27,542 bases of DNA. Source: a virus. Location of the stretch: the UHGV virus genome UHGV-0088497, one strand, 5' to 3'. Each line of letters begins with the position of its first letter. Position 1 is the stretch's first letter. Position numbers and translations under genes: made by a program. The notes beneath the pieces are model-generated. The model searched no databases, was not told where the DNA came from, and was given only the letters and a program-made list of their open reading frames with translations. Of the stretch, positions 2,484 through 17,957 are shown one piece after another.

Positions 2484-3110
2484 TTAAAGTTCGTACTGAA
2501 CGCCTTTGACAACTCCGATAATCAGGCAATTACCGTTTATTGAAATGTTTGGATAGCGTGGATTCAAGGGAACTAAGAACTTTTGAGGCCCATCGATGAC
2601 GAGTTTTTTTACAGTAGCCTCGCTTGTCCCATCAAGCCTGGCTACGACTATCTTTCCATTAAATGGCTCTGCATCAGGATCTACTATGACCGTTGCCCCT
2701 TCTGGGATTGTGGGGAGCCCATTAGGGTTTGTCATCGAATCACCTTTGACCTCCAATGCAAAGGAGCTATCACCTATCCTGAGTGATGTTTCTACCCACT
2801 TATCTACTTCACTGAAAACTTCTGCTGCTTTACATTCTGTAAACTGTCCAGCCTGAACCCAAGATATCACCGGAATCCTTCGCATCTTGGTTATCAGATT
2901 CCCTTCGAATTCAGTGCCATAAAGTATGTAATCAATTGATGTGTTGAAATACTTTGCAAGTTTCGCAAGTGACTCACCGCCTGGCACATTAATGTCTTTT
3001 TCCCAATACCCAACCGCCACATCGCTAACACCACAGAACTTACCCAGTTCTTTCTGCGAGGTTTTAGTTATGCGCCTGAGAGCTTTGATGCGCTGACCGA
3101 CAGTTTCCAT
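2484..3110 (-). CDS. cI: cI-type prophage repressor (XRE HTH plus S24 LexA-like autopeptidase)
   Basis: N-terminal HTH (SQKELGKFCGVSDVAVGYWEKD), an Ala-Gly site (VQAGQ), the GDSM serine motif and a downstream KKL lysine. I start it at ATG 3110 (METVGQ); the ORF-track start at 3143 is a TTG. Confidence 0.9.
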   Translation of the reverse strand: METVGQRIKALRRITKTSQKELGKFCGVSDVAVGYWEKDINVPGGESLAKLAKYFNTSIDYILYGTEFEGNLITKMRRIPVISWVQAGQFTECKAAEVFSEVDKWVETSLRIGDSSFALEVKGDSMTNPNGLPTIPEGATVIVDPDAEPFNGKIVVARLDGTSEATVKKLVIDGPQKFLVPLNPRYPNISINGNCLIIGVVKGVQYEL

Positions 3111-3135
3111 TTGAACACCATAAAAAATTAAAAGG

Positions 3136-3198
3136 CTAAGCAATCTTAGTTTTTATTGACCAAAGTTAGATTGGTTATTAATATCTAATCAAACTTAG
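3136..3198 (+). promoter_or_regulatory. OR region with two CTAA-N6-TTAG operators, one ACCAA-N7-TTGGT palindrome and PR
   Basis: Operators CTAAGCAATCTTAG (3136..3149) and CTAATCAAACTTAG (3185..3198). Palindrome ACCAA-N7-TTGGT (3159..3175). PR is TTGACC (3156..3161), a 17-nt spacer and TAATAT (3179..3184). The region lies between divergent cI and cro. Confidence 0.65.
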
Positions 3199-3211
3199 CT
3201 AAGGGGGCATT

Positions 3212-3439
3212 ATGACAACCGATGATATTGAAAACTACTTCGGCAGTACTGAGAAAGTTGCCGAGTTTTTTGGAATCACAAGCGAGGCCGTTTACCAGTG
3301 GCGTAATAGAACTGGTCGCCTAATCCCGAAAGGACGTGCAGCAGAAGCAGCCTATCGGACTGGGGGAAAATTGGTTTTCCATCCCGACCTTTACGAAAAG
3401 CGTAGCGATGCTTCAGTAAAACTCAAACCACAGGAATAA
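3212..3439 (+). CDS. cro: Cro/YdaS-like HTH regulator (75 aa)
   Basis: Divergent from cI, with an AAGGGGG RBS. The motif KVAEFFGITSEAVYQWRNR...IPKGRAAEAAYRTGGKL is typical of the Cro/YdaS family. Confidence 0.75.
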   Translation: MTTDDIENYFGSTEKVAEFFGITSEAVYQWRNRTGRLIPKGRAAEAAYRTGGKLVFHPDLYEKRSDASVKLKPQE

Positions 3440-3449
3440 GGGGGGAGCT

Positions 3450-4001
3450 GTGGGTAACGAACCTATTTGGAAAGTCGAACGTCAGCCAGCCTGGCTGGTG
3501 GCGGCGATAAAAAAAACGATCACCGATCTTCCTGGTGGTTATGCCGAGGCGGCGGAATGGTTGGGCGTGACAGAGAACGCATTGTTCAACCGCCTTCGTG
3601 TTGACGGCGACCAAATCTTCCCGCTGGGCTGGGCAATGGTTTTACAACGTGCTGGTGGTTCAACTCATATTGCTGATGCCGTTGCGCGCCATTCTCAGGG
3701 CGTATTTGTACCGCTGGCAGATGTCGATGATCTGGATAACGCCGATATCAACCAGCGCCTGATGGAGTCCATCGAATGGATAGGCCGTCATTCGAATTTT
3801 GTACGTAAAGCCACGGCTGATGGGGTAATTGACGCAGATGAGCGTGCTCAGATTGAGGAAAACAGCTATCAGGTTATCGCGAAGTTCCAGGAGCACGTAA
3901 CGCTTCTTTATCGAGTTTTTTGTGTCGCTGAAAAGAGTGACGCCCGCGAGTGTGCAGCTCCGGGCGCCTTGGCGAACAACTCTTCGAGTATGGAGAAATA
4001 A
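3450..4001 (+). CDS. cII-like regulatory protein (Phage_CP76-type, 183 aa)
   Basis: It occupies the position after cro. An HTH-like stretch (GGYAEAAEWLGVTENALFNRLR) resembles the CP76/CII family as I remember it. GTG start. Confidence 0.55.
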   Translation: MGNEPIWKVERQPAWLVAAIKKTITDLPGGYAEAAEWLGVTENALFNRLRVDGDQIFPLGWAMVLQRAGGSTHIADAVARHSQGVFVPLADVDDLDNADINQRLMESIEWIGRHSNFVRKATADGVIDADERAQIEENSYQVIAKFQEHVTLLYRVFCVAEKSDARECAAPGALANNSSSMEK

Positions 4002-4173
4002 TCCGCATGAGCAGTTTAACGGCTTTTAACCGTCTACCGCAACTCAGGATAATCCCGGTTTCGGGTACTCCGTTGTTTCGGTATGAACGCAGATTATCAA
4101 CCCGCTGGGTTCCGTGTAACCACAGTAGGGCGGTTTCAATTGTGGGGGTCTACAACCGGAGGGCAAAACGCCT

Positions 4174-4353
4174 GTGCGCGAACTTAACCGAAGGTTCAAA
4201 GACCACCGTGGAGTGCCAGTCCGTGTTATCCGCTGGGAGCCAGAAACACAGCGCGTTATCTATCTGCGTGATGGCTACCCGCACGAATGCTTCAGCCCAC
4301 TTGAGCATTTCAGGCAAAAATTCAGGGAGATAACGGACGATCATGAGCACTAA
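4174..4353 (+). CDS. Hypothetical protein (59 aa), missing from the ORF track
   Basis: Hand translation gives (V)AELNRRFKDHRGVPVRVIRWEPETQRVIYLRDGYPHECFSPLEHFRQKFREITDDHEH. GTG 4174 lies about 10 nt after GGAGGG. The stop overlaps the start of the O-like gene. It looks more protein-like than the overlapping 127-aa and antisense 66-aa track ORFs. Confidence 0.4.
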   Translation: MRELNRRFKDHRGVPVRVIRWEPETQRVIYLRDGYPHECFSPLEHFRQKFREITDDHEH

Positions 4354-5209
4354 ATTAACCGGCTACGTATGGGATGGTTGCGCGGCGTCGGGCATGAAGT
4401 TGTCTAGTGTCGCGATCATGGCTCGACTCGCTGATTTCAGCAGTGATGAGGGCGTATGCTGGCCGTCAATTGAAACTATTGCTCGCCAGCTTGGCGCAGG
4501 CCCGAGCACTATCAGAACGGCAATCGCAAAGCTTGAAAAAGATGGCTGGCTCACGCGTACACAGCGCCGTAATGGTAACCGTAATGCTTCGAACGTGTAC
4601 CGCCTGAATGTGGCGAAACTTCAGGCTGCCGCATTTTCTCAACTGTCAGATTCTGACACATCAAAATCTGACGCATCAAAATTTGACACCTCAAAAACTG
4701 ACCCGTCGAAATCCGGCAAAAACGGCGGTTTTGACCCGTCAGAATCTGGCGGGGATCCGTCAGTAAAATCAAAACAAGATCCACAAGTAACTTTAAAACC
4801 CTCTTGTCCGGTTGCGGCGCAACCCGACCCTGAGGTTGTGATTACTGATCAGGCCAGACAGGTTTTGTCTTACCTGAACCAGACAACTGGTTCACGCTAC
4901 CAGGTATGCAGCACGTCGCTGGAGAACATTCGCGCCCGTCTGCGGGAACAGTTCACTGTTGATGATCTGTGCCTTGTGGTGGATTACAAAAACGCTGATT
5001 GGCGTGATAGCGAGCAGGCTCAATACCTCCGCCCGGCAACTCTGTTTATTCCAAAAAACTTCCCCGGTTACCTGCAAAGCGCGACCAAATGGTCTGCCGC
5101 TGGGCGACCTGAACGCGTTAACGGTAAATGGGCGACTAACTCAGCCAGCCGCGCAAACTTCCAAAATGTTGACTATTCACTGCCAGAAAATTCGGGGTTC
5201 CGCTCTTGA
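4343..5209 (+). CDS. Replication initiator, lambda-O-like (N-terminal wHTH plus conserved phage C-terminal domain)
   Basis: N-terminal HTH (WPSIETIARQLGAGPSTIRTAIAKLEKDGWL). Internal iteron array. The C-terminal block (QVLSYLNQTTGSRY...DDLCLVVDYK...YLRPATLF) resembles the phage conserved C-terminal replication domain. Confidence 0.8.
   Translation: MSTKLTGYVWDGCAASGMKLSSVAIMARLADFSSDEGVCWPSIETIARQLGAGPSTIRTAIAKLEKDGWLTRTQRRNGNRNASNVYRLNVAKLQAAAFSQLSDSDTSKSDASKFDTSKTDPSKSGKNGGFDPSESGGDPSVKSKQDPQVTLKPSCPVAAQPDPEVVITDQARQVLSYLNQTTGSRYQVCSTSLENIRARLREQFTVDDLCLVVDYKNADWRDSEQAQYLRPATLFIPKNFPGYLQSATKWSAAGRPERVNGKWATNSASRANFQNVDYSLPENSGFRS
4652..4760 (+). repeat. Iteron array (candidate ori) inside the O-like gene
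   Basis: Four tandem 15-bp units: TCTGACACATCAAAA, TCTGACGCATCAAAA, TTTGACACCTCAAAA, ACTGACCCGTCGAAA. After a 19-bp gap comes TTTGACCCGTCAGAA and a degenerate copy. The array encodes the SK-rich linker SDTSKSDASKFDTSKTDPSKS. Confidence 0.65.
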
Positions 5210-13129: not shown

Positions 13130-13408
13130 ATGACCAGAATGAGCACCATTTACAGCAGACTTTCATATGGATCAGGAACCACGCTTGCCGGCTGCGGTGT
13201 ATCAGCGAAGGCATATGCCGAAACAGCCAAAACAGCAAAAGAGGTGTCCTGGATGTTGGCCGACAGAATTGCAGGGTTAAGCCTGAGCGACTGGGCAATT
13301 ATTGTCGGTATCGCATGCACAGTTATCACCTGTGCAGTGAACTGGTATTTCCGCTGGAAAGAACGGGAGGATCGGCGCAATGGCTATGCCACCAAAGCTG
13401 AAGAATAA
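13130..13408 (+). CDS. Class II holin, phage-21 S (pinholin)-like, with an MTRM dual-start motif
   Basis: GGAGGTGAGG RBS. LSLSDWAIIVGIACTVITCAVNWYFRWKEREDRR parallels the S21 C-terminal half. Met1 and Met4 are separated by Arg. Confidence 0.75.
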   Translation: MTRMSTIYSRLSYGSGTTLAGCGVSAKAYAETAKTAKEVSWMLADRIAGLSLSDWAIIVGIACTVITCAVNWYFRWKEREDRRNGYATKAEE

Positions 13409-13928
13409 ACTGAGCGCAGCGGTCGTTGGTTTGATTCTTGCGGGGGCTTCCGCGCCCGTGATTCTCGATCAGTTTCTGGATGAGAAAGAGGGTAACAGCC
13501 TGACAGCATATCGCGACGGCGGCGGAATCTGGACTATTTGCCGTGGCGCCACGATGGTTGATGGTAAGCCAGTCGTTCAGGGGATGAAACTGACGCAAGC
13601 TAAGTGTGAACAGGTCAATGCCATTGAGCGTAACAAGGCGCTGGCGTGGGTTGAGCGAAATATCAGGGTACCGCTGAGCGAACCACAGAAAGCCGGGATC
13701 GCATCTTTCTGCCCATATAACATAGGCCCCGGAAAATGTTTCCCGTCCACGTTCTATAAGCGAATGAACGCCGGCGACACAAAAGGCGCGTGTGAAGCTA
13801 TTCGCTGGTGGATTAAAGACGGTGGCCGCGATTGTCGCCTGACCAAAGGCCAGAAAAATGGCTGTTATGGGCAGGTAGAACGACGAGATCAGGAAAGCGC
13901 GCTGACGTGCTGGGGGATAGACCAGTGA
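13380..13928 (+). CDS. SAR endolysin (lysozyme, phage-21 R-like)
   Basis: N-terminal weakly hydrophobic Gly/Ala-rich signal-anchor ([19 protein letters not shown]), then the catalytic E-8-D-5-T pattern ([16 protein letters not shown]). Confidence 0.85.
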
Positions 13929-14440
13929 GCCTGCGCTATCAGTTCATTGCTATTTCGGTGCTGGTGGCCGTCGCATTTATCGCCGGAAACGAGTGGAGTA
14001 ACCGCGGTTGGGAAAAAAAGTGGGCGGAACGTGACAGCGCGAAATCCTCGCAAACAGCGAACGCGCAGACCGCCGCCCGCATGATTGAACAAGGGCGAAT
14101 TATTGCCCGTGATGAGGCTGTAAAAGATGCACAAGCACAAGCCGCTAAATCTGCTGCGAATGCTGCTGGCCTGTCTGCCACTGTTAGCCAGCTGCGCACC
14201 GAAGCAACAAAGTTTGCCGCCCGCCTGGACGCCGCAAAGCACACCTCAGATCTTGCCGCTGCCGTCAGAAGCAAAACAGCCGGAGCCGACGCCAGAATGC
14301 TCGCCGACATGCTCGGAAGTATTGCAGAAGAAGCTCGATATTATGCTGAGCGATCTGACGAAAGCTACCGGGCTGGAATGACATGTGAGCGTGTTTACGA
14401 CTCGGTGAGACATTCGAATAACAACAGGGTTACACGATGA
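13925..14440 (+). CDS. Rz: i-spanin (Rz-like)
   Basis: GTG 13925 overlaps the endolysin stop (GTGA). It has an N-terminal TM ([15 protein letters not shown]) followed by an Ala/Gln-rich coiled-coil region. Confidence 0.8.
14127..14381 (+). CDS. Rz1: o-spanin lipoprotein (Rz1-like), fully embedded in the +1 frame of Rz
   Basis: Signal peptide with lipobox LASC (Cys23) and a proline-rich mature part. The start could alternatively be Met12 (14160). Confidence 0.75.
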
Positions 14441-14522
14441 ACGCCCACGTGCAGTGGCTGTGCTTGATGGTAGGATTGACGAGAAGAGGGAAAAACTTAA
14501 AGTGCTTGGGGTAACGATTACT

Positions 14523-14645
14523 TTAATTTTTACTGGTATATCGCTTTTGCAATTCAAGTTTCGCCCAGTGCATAAGGAACCCGATTATGGGAGCCGCATA
14601 AGGGGAAAGTGCGTTAAGAAAGTCAATTAGAGTTGTGTCTATCAT
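14523..14645 (-). CDS. Small hydrophobic peptide (40 aa), missing from the ORF track
   Basis: Hand translation gives MIDTTLIDFLNALSPYAAPIIGFLMHWAKLELQKRYTSKN. It has a near-perfect RBS (GAAGGAGATACAAT then ATG). Confidence 0.4.
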   Translation of the reverse strand: MIDTTLIDFLNALSPYAAPIIGFLMHWAKLELQKRYTSKN

Positions 14646-14912
14646 ATTGTATCTCCTTCAAACCAAAATTGTGGAGATGGCTGAGGATTTCAGTCATCTA
14701 TTGTAGGGCCTAATAGGTCTTCCCATTAGTGAGTCGTAAAGATTGCGACTCTTTAAAAGATTCATTACAGGAGATATGGAAATGGTTTCGCTTCGTTTGA
14801 ACAAAGCTGCGTTAATCAGCGCCACCGGCATTCACTGAGTGTCTGCGATCATTCTTTACTAAATAATTCATGGGTTTATCATGGTGACTCTTTGATAAAA
14901 GGAGTTTTGGTA

Positions 14913-15116
14913 ATGAAATTTCTCTGGGTTGTATGCATTATTTGCGGAGTTATTGGGTTTGTGCAGGGAATTATCGGGGTGTTCGGTGCTGTTAGTGCGC
15001 CTCAGCAGGCTGCTGGTGCAGCAATGGGCGTTGCATGGGCGGTAATCCCATATTGCATCTGTCGTGCTATCCAGCAGATGAGACCACAAGAAGTGGTAAT
15101 CAAAAAAGACGAATGA
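14913..15116 (+). CDS. Small 2-TM membrane protein (67 aa)
   Basis: AAAGGAG RBS 8 nt before ATG 14913; the track start at 14892 is a TTG. Two hydrophobic helices. Followed by a terminator. Confidence 0.6.
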   Translation: MKFLWVVCIICGVIGFVQGIIGVFGAVSAPQQAAGAAMGVAWAVIPYCICRAIQQMRPQEVVIKKDE

Positions 15117-15138
15117 TACTCAGCTATCACATCGAATA

Positions 15139-15163
15139 AGCCTCGCAAAAGCGGGGCTTTTTA
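15139..15163 (+). terminator. Rho-independent terminator
   Basis: AGCCTCGC aaaa GCGGGGCT followed by TTTTT. Confidence 0.75.
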
Positions 15164-15230
15164 ATGCCCGCCACCTATCATCGCAAGTGATAATCATTAT
15201 TAATAAATGGGTCCTCCTGGCAGGTTGGCC

Positions 15231-15262
15231 TGCCACGGGGCGGCGTGCTCGCGGAAAACGGC
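15231..15262 (+). other. cos site (cosN-like)
   Basis: GGGCGGCGTGCTCGCGG at 15238..15254 compares with the lambda left end GGGCGGCGACCTCGCGG: 15 of 17 overall, and 10 of 12 within the cohesive-end 12-mer. It lies about 130 bp upstream of the small terminase gene, as in lambda. Confidence 0.75.
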
Positions 15263-15366
15263 TAGTTTTTCAGATCTAAGGTCATCATCATCATTTGCGC
15301 AGGTTATTGATCTCATTGGAGGCGATTTCGTGCAGATGTCGAATCGTTTAAAAAGTGTTCACCATC

Positions 15367-15855
15367 ATGGACCAGGAAATTGCCACTTTAAAACTGAATA
15401 TCAACCAGTTGGCGGGGATCACTGGCGTACACCGTCAGACGGTCGCCGCCAGGCTGAAAAATATTGAACCGGCACCAGGTAGCAACAGCAAATTAAAGCT
15501 TTACCTGATCACCGACATTCTGACCGAACTGATGATCCCCACTGTGTCAGCCAATATCGATGACATGCTGCCATCGGACAGGCTTTCCCACTGGAAAGCG
15601 GAGAATGAGCGACTCAAGTTTGAGCAGGATACGGGGCAGCTCATTCCCGCTGATGAAGTGGCGCGCGAATTCTCATTGATGGCGAAAGCCGTCGTCATGG
15701 TACTTGAAACCCTCCCTGATGTACTTGAGCGTGACTGTGCATTAACGCCTGTTGCGGTTTCTCGCGTGCAGAGCGTTATTGATGACCTGCGCGATCAGAT
15801 GGCGGAGAGGGTGCAGGACGCTGAAGCAGAGGAGGAAGAGCCAGAGGAGGACTGA
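15367..15855 (+). CDS. Terminase small subunit (Nu1-like wHTH)
   Basis: LNINQLAGITGVHRQTVAARLKN resembles the lambda Nu1 N-terminal wHTH. Acidic C-terminus. It sits immediately upstream of TerL with a 1-nt overlap. The start is uncertain (GTG 15355 or ATG 15367). Confidence 0.75.
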   Translation: MDQEIATLKLNINQLAGITGVHRQTVAARLKNIEPAPGSNSKLKLYLITDILTELMIPTVSANIDDMLPSDRLSHWKAENERLKFEQDTGQLIPADEVAREFSLMAKAVVMVLETLPDVLERDCALTPVAVSRVQSVIDDLRDQMAERVQDAEAEEEEPEED

Positions 15856-17957
15856 TGGCAAAGCGGGCATCCGCCAGAGGCATCCGCCGCGATGTTTCCG
15901 GTATCTTACGTGCCCCGCGTCGAATGCAGGTGGCCGATGCGGTCAGTACTTATATGCGCGTGCCGATGGGGGCGGGTAACTCCGTTCCATGGGATCCGGA
16001 TCTGGCACCTTACGTGATTGAACCGATGAACTGCCTGGCATCGCGTGAATATGACGCGGTAGTGTTTGTTGGTCCGGCGCGAACGGGTAAAACCATTGGT
16101 CTGATTGATGGCTGGATTGTTTACAACGTTGTCTGTGATCCGGCTGATATGCTCCTGATTCAGATGACTGAGGAAAAGGCGCGCGAGCACTCCAAAAAGC
16201 GTCTTGATCGTACATTCCGTTGCAGCCCTGAAGTGAAATCCCGACTGAGCCCGCGGCGTAATGATAACAACGTATATGACCGCACGTTTCGCGCCGGGAA
16301 CTACCTGAAAATCGGCTGGCCATCGGTCAATATCATGTCCTCATCGGACTATAAATGCGTGGCACTGACCGACTATGACCGTTTCCCGGAAGACATTGAC
16401 GGGGAAGGTGACGCCTTTTCACTGGCATCAAAGCGAACAACAACGTTCATGTCGTCAGGAATGACACTGGTTGAGAGTTCGCCGGGCCGCGACATACGTG
16501 ACACAAAATGGCGCCGTAGCTCACCGCATGAAGCACCTCCTTCAACGGGGATTCTGGCGCTGTACAACCGTGGTGATCGCCGTCGCCTTTACTGGCCGTG
16601 CCCACATTGCGGTGAATATTTCCAGCCTGAAATGGACAATATGACAGGTTACCGCGATATCGCGGACCCTGTTCAGGCCAGCGAGAAAGCCTGTCTTCAA
16701 TGCCCTGCCTGTAAAGAGCACATCACTGCGGATATGAAGCGTTCGCTCAATATGAAAGGGAAGTGGCTGCGGGATGGGCAAACCATCGACAACGATGGTG
16801 TTATCACTGGGGAAGGGCGACGCTCGCGCATTGCCTCCTTCTGGATGGAAGGCCCTGCCGCCGCGTACCAGACCTGGGCGCAGCTCATCTATAAATTTCT
16901 TACCGCTGAGCAGGACTATCAGGCCACTGGCAGCGAGGAGGCACTGAAGACGGTAATCAACACCGACTTTGGGCGTCCGTATCTTCCTCGCTCCAGCATG
17001 GAACAGCGCAAAAGTGAACTGCTTGAGCAGCGTGCGGAGGTTGTACCAAAGCGCTCTGTTCCGGACGGGGTTTGTTTCCTTATGGCGACCGTCGATGTTC
17101 AGGCGGGGCGCAACCGGCGTTTTGTTGTTCAGGTTACTGGCTACGGCAGCATGGGAGAGCGCTGGCTGGTGGACCGCTACAATATCAGGCAGTCGATGCG
17201 CTATGACGCCAATGGCGAGAGCCAGCAGATTGACCCGGCAAGCTATCCGGAAGACTGGGATTTATTGCTGACCGATGTGTTTAACAAAGCCTGGCCAATG
17301 GCATCGGATCCGACTAGGTGTATGCGGCTGATGGCGATGGCCGTTGACTCCGGCGGTGAGGATGGTGTGACCGACAACGCTTATAAATTCTGGCGTAAGT
17401 GTCGTCGTGAAGGACTCGGAAAACAGATTTACCTGTTCAAAGGCGACAGTGTCCGCCGATCCAAACTTATCTCCCGAACCTTTCCTGATAATACCGGACG
17501 TTCAAGCCGACGGGCACAGGCTTCTGGTGATGTCCCGCTTTACTTGATCCAGACCGATGCTCTGAAAGACCGGGTGAACAACGCTTTGTGGCGTGATTCA
17601 CCAGGCCCTGGCTATGTGCATTTCCCTGACTGGCTCGGTAGCTGGTTTTACGATGAACTGACCTATGAGGAGCGATCGACTGATGGCAAATGGAGTAAGC
17701 CGGGACGTGGTGCAAACGAAGCATTTGACCTGCTGGTCTACGCTGATGCGCTCGCCATCCTCCACGGCTACGAGAAAATCAAATGGCCCGCTGCTCCTGA
17801 GTGGGCGAGGCGGGAAACCTGGCTGGAGAACGCGCCGCCGGAAGCTGGCGAAGCGGCATCCCAGACACCAGAACCAGTACCCACCAAAAAACGGAAGCGG
17901 AAAAAGCCCGTAACCGATGATTCTAACCCCTGGAGTACATCAGGAGGATGGTTGTGA
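15855..17957 (+). CDS. Terminase large subunit (lambda gpA family)
   Basis: 700 aa with a Walker A-like motif (VFVGPARTGKT) and a CPHCG...CPAC zinc-like motif. It has the size and position of lambda gpA. Confidence 0.9.
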   Translation: MAKRASARGIRRDVSGILRAPRRMQVADAVSTYMRVPMGAGNSVPWDPDLAPYVIEPMNCLASREYDAVVFVGPARTGKTIGLIDGWIVYNVVCDPADMLLIQMTEEKAREHSKKRLDRTFRCSPEVKSRLSPRRNDNNVYDRTFRAGNYLKIGWPSVNIMSSSDYKCVALTDYDRFPEDIDGEGDAFSLASKRTTTFMSSGMTLVESSPGRDIRDTKWRRSSPHEAPPSTGILALYNRGDRRRLYWPCPHCGEYFQPEMDNMTGYRDIADPVQASEKACLQCPACKEHITADMKRSLNMKGKWLRDGQTIDNDGVITGEGRRSRIASFWMEGPAAAYQTWAQLIYKFLTAEQDYQATGSEEALKTVINTDFGRPYLPRSSMEQRKSELLEQRAEVVPKRSVPDGVCFLMATVDVQAGRNRRFVVQVTGYGSMGERWLVDRYNIRQSMRYDANGESQQIDPASYPEDWDLLLTDVFNKAWPMASDPTRCMRLMAMAVDSGGEDGVTDNAYKFWRKCRREGLGKQIYLFKGDSVRRSKLISRTFPDNTGRSSRRAQASGDVPLYLIQTDALKDRVNNALWRDSPGPGYVHFPDWLGSWFYDELTYEERSTDGKWSKPGRGANEAFDLLVYADALAILHGYEKIKWPAAPEWARRETWLENAPPEAGEAASQTPEPVPTKKRKRKKPVTDDSNPWSTSGGWL

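Follow-up and report, generated by a model that had tools for sequence, protein, structure and literature searches.

A putative orphan T7-group promoter precedes interchangeable mini-peptide genes in temperate prophages of Citrobacter and Escherichia coli

What would transcribe a 40-codon gene that lies at the end of a lysis cassette, on the opposite strand, with no recognizable host promoter in front of it? The question is raised by positions 14,441–15,165 of the virus genome UHGV-0088497, a lambdoid Citrobacter prophage analyzed here over a stretch of 27,542 nucleotides (hereafter the window). A preliminary description, made from the letters alone, had read this interval as a divergent pair of tiny membrane-peptide genes flanking a shared 267-bp control region. 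We find instead two independent cargo cassettes abutting in the hot spot between the lysis genes and the cohesive-end (cos) site: cassette 1, built around p67, a gene for a 67-residue membrane protein, and cassette 2, built around the peptide gene pep40. The second is the interesting part, as it consists of a predicted orphan promoter of the T7 group of phages placed before one of several interchangeable mini-peptides, and it occurs in prophages of two genera. Coordinates of all features are collected in Table 1; loci compared with the window carry the letter L and a number.

Pep40 encodes the peptide MIDTTLIDFLNALSPYAAPIIGFLMHWAKLELQKRYTSKN, which is moderately hydrophobic over its N-terminal two-thirds and ends in a conserved basic tail (HWAKLELQKRY). 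Its ribosome-binding site (RBS) reads GAAGGAGATACAAT-ATG. Homologues fall into seven clusters of 38–42 residues with 80–95% identity, and the exact sequence is found on 27 contigs, for which Citrobacter freundii is named; a scan of species-representative genomes returned no relative. At every homologous locus, AGGAGATA, the ATG, and the open frame are retained. Against the most divergent copy (L090, 24 substitutions), the ratio of nonsynonymous to synonymous changes (pN/pS) is 0.24, and the pep40 frame is the sole stop-free frame in that comparison. Four of the five control frames have a pN/pS above 2, while the fifth, at 0.29, contains stops and is the antisense frame that shares third codon positions with pep40. 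The intact RBS, start codon and frame, together with the pN/pS of 0.24, identify pep40 as a real protein-coding gene. The open reading frame (ORF) running from 14645 to 14523 and its near-ideal RBS were thus correctly called at the outset, and the peptide's hydrophobicity, also claimed there, is partial (see below). A 58-residue plus-strand ORF that overlaps pep40 was rejected: it has no RBS, and its frame either has a pN/pS above 2 or contains stops.

Upstream of pep40 lies a 23-bp block that, by consensus and score, is a T7-group (Berlinvirus/Teseptimavirus-type) phage RNA-polymerase promoter, with a predicted start at G 14724 and a leader of 79 nt. It is the most informative feature of the interval, and one that the preliminary account had missed. 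The block is identical to promoter phi1.1 of Kluyvera phage Kvp1, a Berlinvirus, at 20 of 23 positions. Position weight matrices (PWMs) were built from the 14 annotated promoters of Kvp1 and the 17 annotated promoters of T7. On the Kvp1 PWM, the block scores 29.2 bits, inside the leave-one-out range of genuine Kvp1 promoters (21.4–37.2), four of which score lower. Elsewhere in the window, no site exceeds 5.8 bits, and 300 shuffles give a maximum of 17.0 bits, a post hoc statistic, the resemblance having been spotted after inspection of the alignment. On the T7 PWM, the score is 18.1 bits, with an exact match at −14 to −3 (12 contiguous positions) and at +1 to +4 (GGGA), and the bases at −2 and −1 are also used by T7 in phi1.5, phi1.6, phi4.3, and phi2.5. 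With promoters of the Studiervirinae such as Kvp1 phi1.1 (CAATACGACTCACTAATGGGAAA) and T7 phi2.5 (TAATACGACTCACTATTAGGGAAGA), the block shares the 23-bp architecture, the CGACTCACTA core, the A/T-rich −4 to −1 segment, the GGGA start, a score within the genuine range, and the same natural variants at −2/−1.

These variants can be followed from locus to locus (a slash precedes +1). CACTAAT/GGGAAG, present in the window, is annotated as a promoter in the records of Kvp1 and BA14; CACTATT/GGGAAG, present in L083 and L165, is found in Kvp1 phi13, phi17, and phi19.2; and CACTATTA/GGGAA in L090 equals T7 phi2.5 from −12 to +6. A metagenome scan also returned contigs of ~40 kb with several such promoters each that encode a T7 RNA polymerase homologue (1566 bits versus PDB 1CEZ). 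The core of the block is invariant across divergent leaders: the window and L007 agree at 100% of the block, 69% of the remaining leader, and 55% of the coding sequence. In L083, homology to the window starts exactly at the upstream edge of the block, and in L017 the same payload and proximal leader stand behind unrelated sequence with a different T7-type block (AATTACGACTCACTACT/GGAGAA). Diverged copies occur in 21 genomes of E. coli at the same lysis/HNH-terminase junction. Twenty of these match over the middle segment (14742–14844 in the window) and the promoter block only; L209 is the locus read for them. Its block, CAATACGACTCACTAATGGGGAG, scores 36.3 bits, on par with the best of Kvp1, and is followed by a different leader and a different payload. 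Across 905 kb of prophage and host DNA, all sites of at least 20 bits belong to this element, one per locus, while T7 has 16 such sites and the Kayfunavirus CR44b none.

Four different peptides of 37–42 residues occupy the same place behind this shared upstream region, namely payload alleles a1 (pep40 of the window), a2 (MLEIYVFKILFYSTYLILGVLAHWAKLELTKRYERKK), a3 (MEASNVLVTILFAPATATILWFILSLIHFRLTGVPLV), and a4 of E. coli (MLRSKSQLTVIITTSPYAEDLFRFTLSLIHFYLTGSPLSF). Alleles a1 and a2 are related to each other, as are a3 and a4, and the links between the two pairs are weak. The Shine-Dalgarno (SD) sequence is kept as (A)GGAGA in all of them. The best 19-residue Kyte-Doolittle window scores 1.42 for a1, which is borderline for a membrane helix, 1.83 for a2, and 2.29 for a3. 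The leader thus appears to be the constant part of the cassette and the peptide the swappable part, always at the end of the lysis cassette and on the opposite strand, in both lambda-like and HNH/P27-terminase prophages. The payload ORFs of E. coli (L209 1738–1860 and L210 1703–1822) are not annotated by the Prokaryotic Genome Annotation Pipeline (PGAP) in complete genomes: the annotation tables show the payload position free of forward-strand genes, and for L209 and 19 similar genomes the search reported no feature beneath the match. In L084–L086, the peptide is truncated to 38 residues alongside the promoter variant CACTTAT (A-to-T at −3, 23.4 bits; near position 3905 of each locus); this cassette may be a decaying copy.

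The putative promoter is an orphan, as neither the window (best E 6.5) nor the leader-bearing loci encode a T7-type RNA polymerase detectable by tblastn with a T7 RNA polymerase homologue. The block therefore differs from Studiervirinae promoters in its setting, a lambdoid or HK97-like prophage without a single-subunit RNA polymerase, and in being a single copy; in the window, it is also off consensus at −16/−15. No T7-like gene lies downstream: in a comparison with 281 kb of T7-like genomes, leaders and payloads matched nothing significantly apart from the promoter, and a captured T7-like gene was rejected on this ground.

Host signals were sought on both strands, and no sigma-70-like site that could drive the peptide gene or an antisense RNA recurs in any of the allele types. 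In L007 and L008, the one such site is that of p67, and a site at 14675–14646 on the minus strand was discarded as a pep40 promoter because its start would fall inside the ORF. Given a prophage without a T7-type polymerase and without a recognizable host promoter for the peptide, we propose that cassette 2 would be silent in the lysogen and read upon T7-like infection. An infecting phage of Berlinvirus/T7 promoter specificity, that is, one with CGACTCAC-type promoters, would make its RNA polymerase, which would transcribe pep40 from the orphan promoter. Once made, the peptide would harm the cell envelope or stop the invader in some other way, and the outcome would be abortive infection or exclusion that protects the lysogen population. 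That the invader's own polymerase expresses a harmful peptide from the orphan T7-group promoter, so that the cassette acts as a defensive trap in the prophage, is a reading to which we give about as much credence as doubt. For E. coli, cognate cultured phages are well known (for example, BA14, 285P, and T7).

Several points weigh against such a trap. We infer transcription by the phage polymerase, toxicity of the peptide, and protection of the lysogen from sequence, and the sequence sets are small and phylogenetically related. Besides the post hoc nature of the shuffle statistics, the window block is off consensus at −16 and −15, the blocks of L210 (17.5 bits), L017 (19.5 bits), and L083 score just 17.5–21.4 bits, and L084–L086 carry the A-to-T substitution at −3. 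The conserved TACAAT at 14700–14705 (minus strand) could be the −10 box of a host promoter that is weak or needs an activator. The hydrophobicity of the pep40 peptide is borderline. The cultured T7-like phages of Citrobacter that were checked (CR44b, SH3, and SH4) belong to the Kayfunaviruses and use a different promoter, which leaves Citrobacter without a documented cognate phage in culture. Finally, a conserved leader hairpin is ~5 kcal/mol more stable on the strand opposite to pep40, which would suit an antisense RNA and thereby the logic of a type I toxin-antitoxin (TA) system.

This last point leads to the main alternative, a type I TA-like module under host-polymerase control. The pep40 mRNA would come from a weak or activator-dependent promoter, for example one using TACAAT; a plus-strand antisense RNA with one or more strong hairpins, or late read-through, would keep this mRNA untranslated; and the T7-type block would be incidental or a relic. 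The peptide would aid prophage maintenance or the phage's own lysis, in line with the position of the gene, which adjoins the lysis cassette and is convergent with it. A precedent exists in hokW-sokW of Sp5, a type I toxin of a lambdoid prophage that promotes release of that phage (PMC8621323). The small peptide, its strong RBS, and an element complementary to the SD also agree with such a module, as does the hairpin, for which RNAalifold gives nine pairs, four with double compensatory changes and none broken. Its energy is −8.6 kcal/mol on the pep40 strand versus −13.7 kcal/mol on the opposite strand, because an invariant A·C mismatch becomes G·U there. In each of the four leader variants, part of the SD is sequestered in the minimum-energy fold, with differing partners and z-scores that are mostly non-significant, and it is possible that the ATCTCC/CCATCTCC element attenuates pep40 translation.

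Family searches point the other way. An Rfam scan of 14000–15500 gave just sub-threshold matches to a terminator hairpin, and no Rfam family was assigned. The window peptide (a1) has no match in Pfam, NCBIfam, PHROG, or PADLOC; a2, a3, and the a1 variant of L090 have none in Pfam or NCBIfam even at E ≤ 10, and a2 has none in PADLOC. Described type I toxin families (Hok, Ldr, TisB, Ibs, ShoB, Zor, DinQ, and others) gave no profile match for a1–a3, the three of the four payloads covered by the family-library scans. With no sigma-70-like promoter for either the mRNA or an antisense RNA in any allele type, a host-run module also leaves unexplained why a block of promoter quality stands in the right orientation, in several natural variants, before four payloads, in two host genera, and once behind an unrelated flank. 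We therefore consider this alternative unlikely. A toxin or exclusion role, as suggested in the preliminary description, is still the most plausible class for the peptide; it is the classical type I version that lacks a recognizable host promoter, a recognizable antisense RNA gene, and a toxin-family match.

Alternatively, the T7-type block could be a non-functional remnant of recombination and the peptides ordinary cargo, expressed through an unrecognized host promoter or read-through. Mosaic joints are indeed common (the duplicated Rz 3′ end in L084–L086 and the leader chimera of L017 are examples), low scores occur in L210 and L017, and L084–L086 combine the −3 substitution with a truncated peptide. 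Against a remnant, the block is the best conserved part of the leader between allele types, as seen between the window and L007, and its −2/−1 substitutions stay inside the set used by genuine promoters. In addition, leaders and payloads show no significant similarity to T7-like genomes beyond the promoter itself, and the E. coli copy is near consensus. Conservation of the block over its flanks and the near-consensus E. coli copy disfavor a relic, which we regard as distinctly improbable.

The region between the two genes offers little to a shared-control model. The inverted repeat reported as GAGTCG-N8-CGACTC at 14730–14749 exists, with its coordinates offset: the arms, GAGTCG at 14731–14736 and CGACTC at 14746–14751, are 9 nt apart and belong to a longer stem of 9 bp closed by a loop of 3 nt (−12 kcal/mol, z −4.85). 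The first arm is part of the T7-type promoter core, and the second lies inside the middle segment, where it is absent from L083/L165 and imperfect in L090. The repeat is hence not a conserved operator, and just one arm is conserved, the one that belongs to the promoter core. The middle segment is present in loci without pep40 (L008 and L010–L012), in loci without p67 (L084–L086), and in 20 E. coli genomes (~80% identity), and is absent from L083/L165. Scans of the segment gave no conserved ORF, Rfam match, or sigma-70-like site. It holds TATCTCCT, which is complementary to the payload SD. Two ORFs in this region were set aside. ORF20 (14776–14838, plus strand; MEMVSLRLNKAALISATGIH, 20 codons, AGGAG RBS) has an 11-nt deletion in L090 and has lost its stop in L009, and is probably no gene; a 45-residue minus-strand ORF (14694–14831) is frameshifted or truncated in relatives.

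The two cassettes have separate boundaries and separate distributions. Homology breakpoints divide the p67 unit from the peptide cassette, which is present in 11 of 80 p67 loci and missing from the other 69. Conversely, the cassette occurs without p67 in L083–L086, L090, L165, and about 21 E. coli genomes, where the gene upstream of it is unrelated to p67. The window and 10 related loci have the two genes side by side and divergent; in L017, they are side by side and convergent. Together, the boundaries, the distribution, and the convergent arrangement of L017 establish that the cassettes are independent, and the divergent pair of the preliminary description dissolves. A single functional unit run from the shared 267-bp region, be it a toxin with its immunity protein or two co-regulated partners, has the adjacency in these loci in its favor and is, with these breakpoints and this distribution, very hard to credit. 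In L017, the cassette ends at an apparent p67 terminator hairpin, and its leader (~4280–4600, minus strand) is chimeric, with a distal part like that of E. coli L209 and a proximal part like that of the window. In L084–L086, a second, partial Rz 3′ end (residues 125–197; ~3575–3793) directly follows the peptide cassette; this duplication is a recombination scar, pointing to insertion or exchange of the cassette at the end of Rz.

Cassette 1 has the makeup of a classical moron, with a predicted sigma-70 promoter of its own, an RBS, an ORF, and its own terminator. In most p67 loci, homology to the window is confined to the stretch from ~14845–14854 through ~15162–15167; in loci with unrelated flanks, this span opens at the −35 box and closes where the terminator ends. 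Divergent loci agree in the boxes TTTACT and TATC(A/C)T and in the distance of 16 nt between them, with a spacer that differs in sequence, and the family retains the terminator stem AGCCTCGC/GCGGGGCT around a variable loop. Conserved boxes and stem, variable spacer and loop, and the matching homology boundaries mark the p67 unit as an autonomous promoter-ORF-terminator moron. The RBS of p67 has the form AAAAGGAG-N8-ATG. The terminator, a 9-bp GC-rich stem followed by UUUUU (−16.7 kcal/mol, z −2.95 for the fold of 15138–15164), was overlooked by a simple pattern scan and recovered by folding. In all 80 fetched loci, p67 lies on the late-gene strand; where neighbors are recognizable, lysis genes are upstream and the terminase downstream, with endolysins and terminases that differ widely.

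The p67 protein matches PHROG 12304 over its full length (E 4.8e-41, residues 1–67 versus profile positions 1–67 of 67), a family that carries no functional annotation. Its best 19-residue Kyte-Doolittle window of 2.58 is clearly membrane-like, and the AlphaFold2 (AF2) model is a two-helix hairpin (helices 2–24 and 29–56; mean predicted local distance difference test score, pLDDT, 81.5). The two-transmembrane gene, its RBS, and its strong terminator were thus all rightly described before. Homologues form 40 protein clusters in Enterobacterales and occur on at least 112 viral contigs, and a profile search of 1.84 billion representatives yielded 964 relatives at E ≤ 1e-3. Residues W5, A29-P30-Q31, A33-A34, A36, and P46-Y47 do not vary, not even in members from Xanthomonadales, Acidobacteria, and Bacteroidota, and Q32 and R51 come close to invariance. 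The family lacks a Pfam or NCBIfam model, and sub-threshold Pfam matches (T4SS_pilin, DUF4282, and MotA_ExbB) were dismissed as too weak. In distant homologues from Dokdonella and Tahibacter (L100, L109, and L111–L114), p67 is fused to an N-terminal CxxC...CPxCG zinc ribbon, and further family members are fused to a kinase fragment or a double zinc ribbon. These distant homologues sit in variable islands with no constant neighbor, and neither neighborhoods nor fusions gave a functional clue. Shigella phage SfI (NC_027339) has an unannotated remnant of the C-terminal 23 residues of p67 at 37827–37895, near its genome end. Judging from its signals, p67 is probably expressed from the prophage; a role in membrane-level lysogenic conversion or exclusion would be our guess. 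With about a thousand clusters at 50% identity, a strongly conserved motif, and no annotation, the family merits definition.

The placement of the interval between the spanins and cos was right from the start. The probable cohesive-end sequence, GGGCGGCGTGCT, is one base off the annotated cos of phage LLS (GGGCGGCGCGCT). Exact copies of window proteins have source names from the Citrobacter freundii complex and Leclercia. In the closest deposited phages, Eeyore and Flotzy (~80% identity), the gap from Rz to cos holds different cargo or nearly none, which makes it a variable cargo site and bears out the earlier suggestion of a moron hot spot. In Flotzy (L002), the gap contains a serine-threonine kinase and two hypothetical genes (2968–4533). 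A near-identity search with the interval found no match in deposited phage genomes, and E. coli matched at the Rz end only. Among plasmids, the matches are limited to two records from E. coli and there to a fragment of the middle segment and promoter block.

Table 1 Features of the lysis-to-cos interval and its surroundings in the window
Feature	Position	Strand	Basis or remark
Holin	13130-13408		
Endolysin	13380-13928		
Rz1	14127-14381		embedded in Rz
Rz	ends 14440		
Cassette 2 (pep40)	14441-14741	-	usually with the 14742-14844 segment
pep40, payload allele a1, 40 codons plus stop	14523-14645	-	ORF, homologues, pN/pS
pep40 Shine-Dalgarno AAGGAGAT, 5 nt before ATG	14651-14658	-	sequence
CCATCTCC element complementary to the SD (GGAGAT), possible translational attenuator	14673-14680	-	ATCTCC invariant in window-type leaders
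Leader hairpin AGAUGACUGA-AAUCC-UCAGCCAUCU	14675-14699		RNAalifold
Predicted T7-group (Berlinvirus/T7-type) phage RNA-polymerase promoter, -17 to +6, CTTTACGACTCACTAAT/GGGAAG	14719-14741	-	Kvp1/T7 promoter models
Inverted repeat GAGTCG ... CGACTC	14731-14751		fold
Middle segment	14742-14844		usually accompanies the promoter block
Cassette 1 (p67)	14845-15165	+	
p67 sigma-70-type promoter TTTACT-16 nt-TATCAT	14855-14882	+	scan; boxes conserved
p67 Shine-Dalgarno AAAAGGAG	14897-14904	+	family keeps (A/T)GGAG
p67, two-helix inner-membrane protein of 67 residues, PHROG 12304	14913-15116	+	profile match, conserved residues, structure model
p67 intrinsic terminator AAGCCTCGC-AAAA-GCGGGGCTT, then TTT	15138-15164	+	fold; conserved stem
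cos, probable	15238-15249		placed by comparison with the cos annotated in phage LLS
Small terminase subunit	15355-15855		
Large terminase subunit	15855-17957		

Lambda bor sits between late genes at the position of p67, and HK97 gp15 is an exclusion protein. Like such lambdoid morons, p67 brings its own promoter and terminator to a site between conserved late genes, here the bor position; the peptide cassette differs from them in having no recognizable host promoter. The comparison with bor drawn in the preliminary description is one of position, as p67 is no lipoprotein and is related neither to Bor nor to any other named family: neither protein of the interval reaches the threshold of any Pfam family, and direct reading found no lipobox in either sequence. 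T7-like promoters without a cognate polymerase gene have reportedly been seen in enterobacterial chromosomes by Chen and Schneider in 2006, in islands said to span 4–13 kb, to lie at tRNA genes, to carry a P4-type integrase and two or three tandem promoters that drive several phage-like proteins, and to have been proposed as satellites. Such promoters imply dependence on an infecting T7-like phage, as in the present reading. The islands so described differ from the present cassette, which has one promoter and one peptide of ~40 residues at the lysis-to-packaging junction of ordinary temperate prophages.

With type I TA toxins, including hokW-sokW (PMC8621323) and hok/sok, whose activity against T4 has been re-evaluated (PMC13047441), the peptide cassette shares a tiny peptide gene, a strong RBS, and a structured leader that can occlude the SD; further points in common are the lambdoid prophage location and a plausible outcome of membrane damage linked to phage infection. 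It differs in that the proposed trigger is transcription gained from a foreign polymerase and not loss of a labile antitoxin, and in that no toxin-family hidden Markov model matches a1–a3 and no antisense RNA gene or host promoter is identifiable. In the case of lactococcal AbiD1 (PMC2661086), a phage protein activates translation of an existing mRNA. AbiD1 resembles the proposed trap in being a defense gene that is off until switched on by a product of the invader; it differs in that here the RNA polymerase of the invader would create the mRNA from a mimicked phage promoter.

PADLOC has no defense-system model that matches the interval, and our literature search found no natural defense triggered by the promoter of a foreign phage polymerase. 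If borne out, the mechanism would add to phage-triggered abortive and exclusion systems, with a trigger that we infer to be new. To our knowledge, sensing in anti-phage systems relies on dedicated sensor proteins that respond to phage proteins, nucleic acids, or host shut-off. If the proposed reading is true, the sensor here would be ~23 bp of DNA that mimics the promoter of the invader, and the effector a peptide below the size accepted by standard gene callers, together the smallest defense module described. No host sensor protein would be needed, and the target would be the polymerase, which a T7-like phage can neither do without nor easily change; escape would require joint re-tuning of the invader's polymerase and promoters. 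We suggest tentatively, and with somewhat more doubt than belief, that orphan foreign-phage promoters are a natural sensing principle in anti-phage defense, here coupled to interchangeable harmful peptides of ~40 residues in temperate phages of Citrobacter and E. coli. Running promoter models of phage polymerases over prophage hot spots would provide a recipe to search for further cases, and the principle, if true, would explain the persistence of orphan T7-like promoters in enterobacterial genomes.

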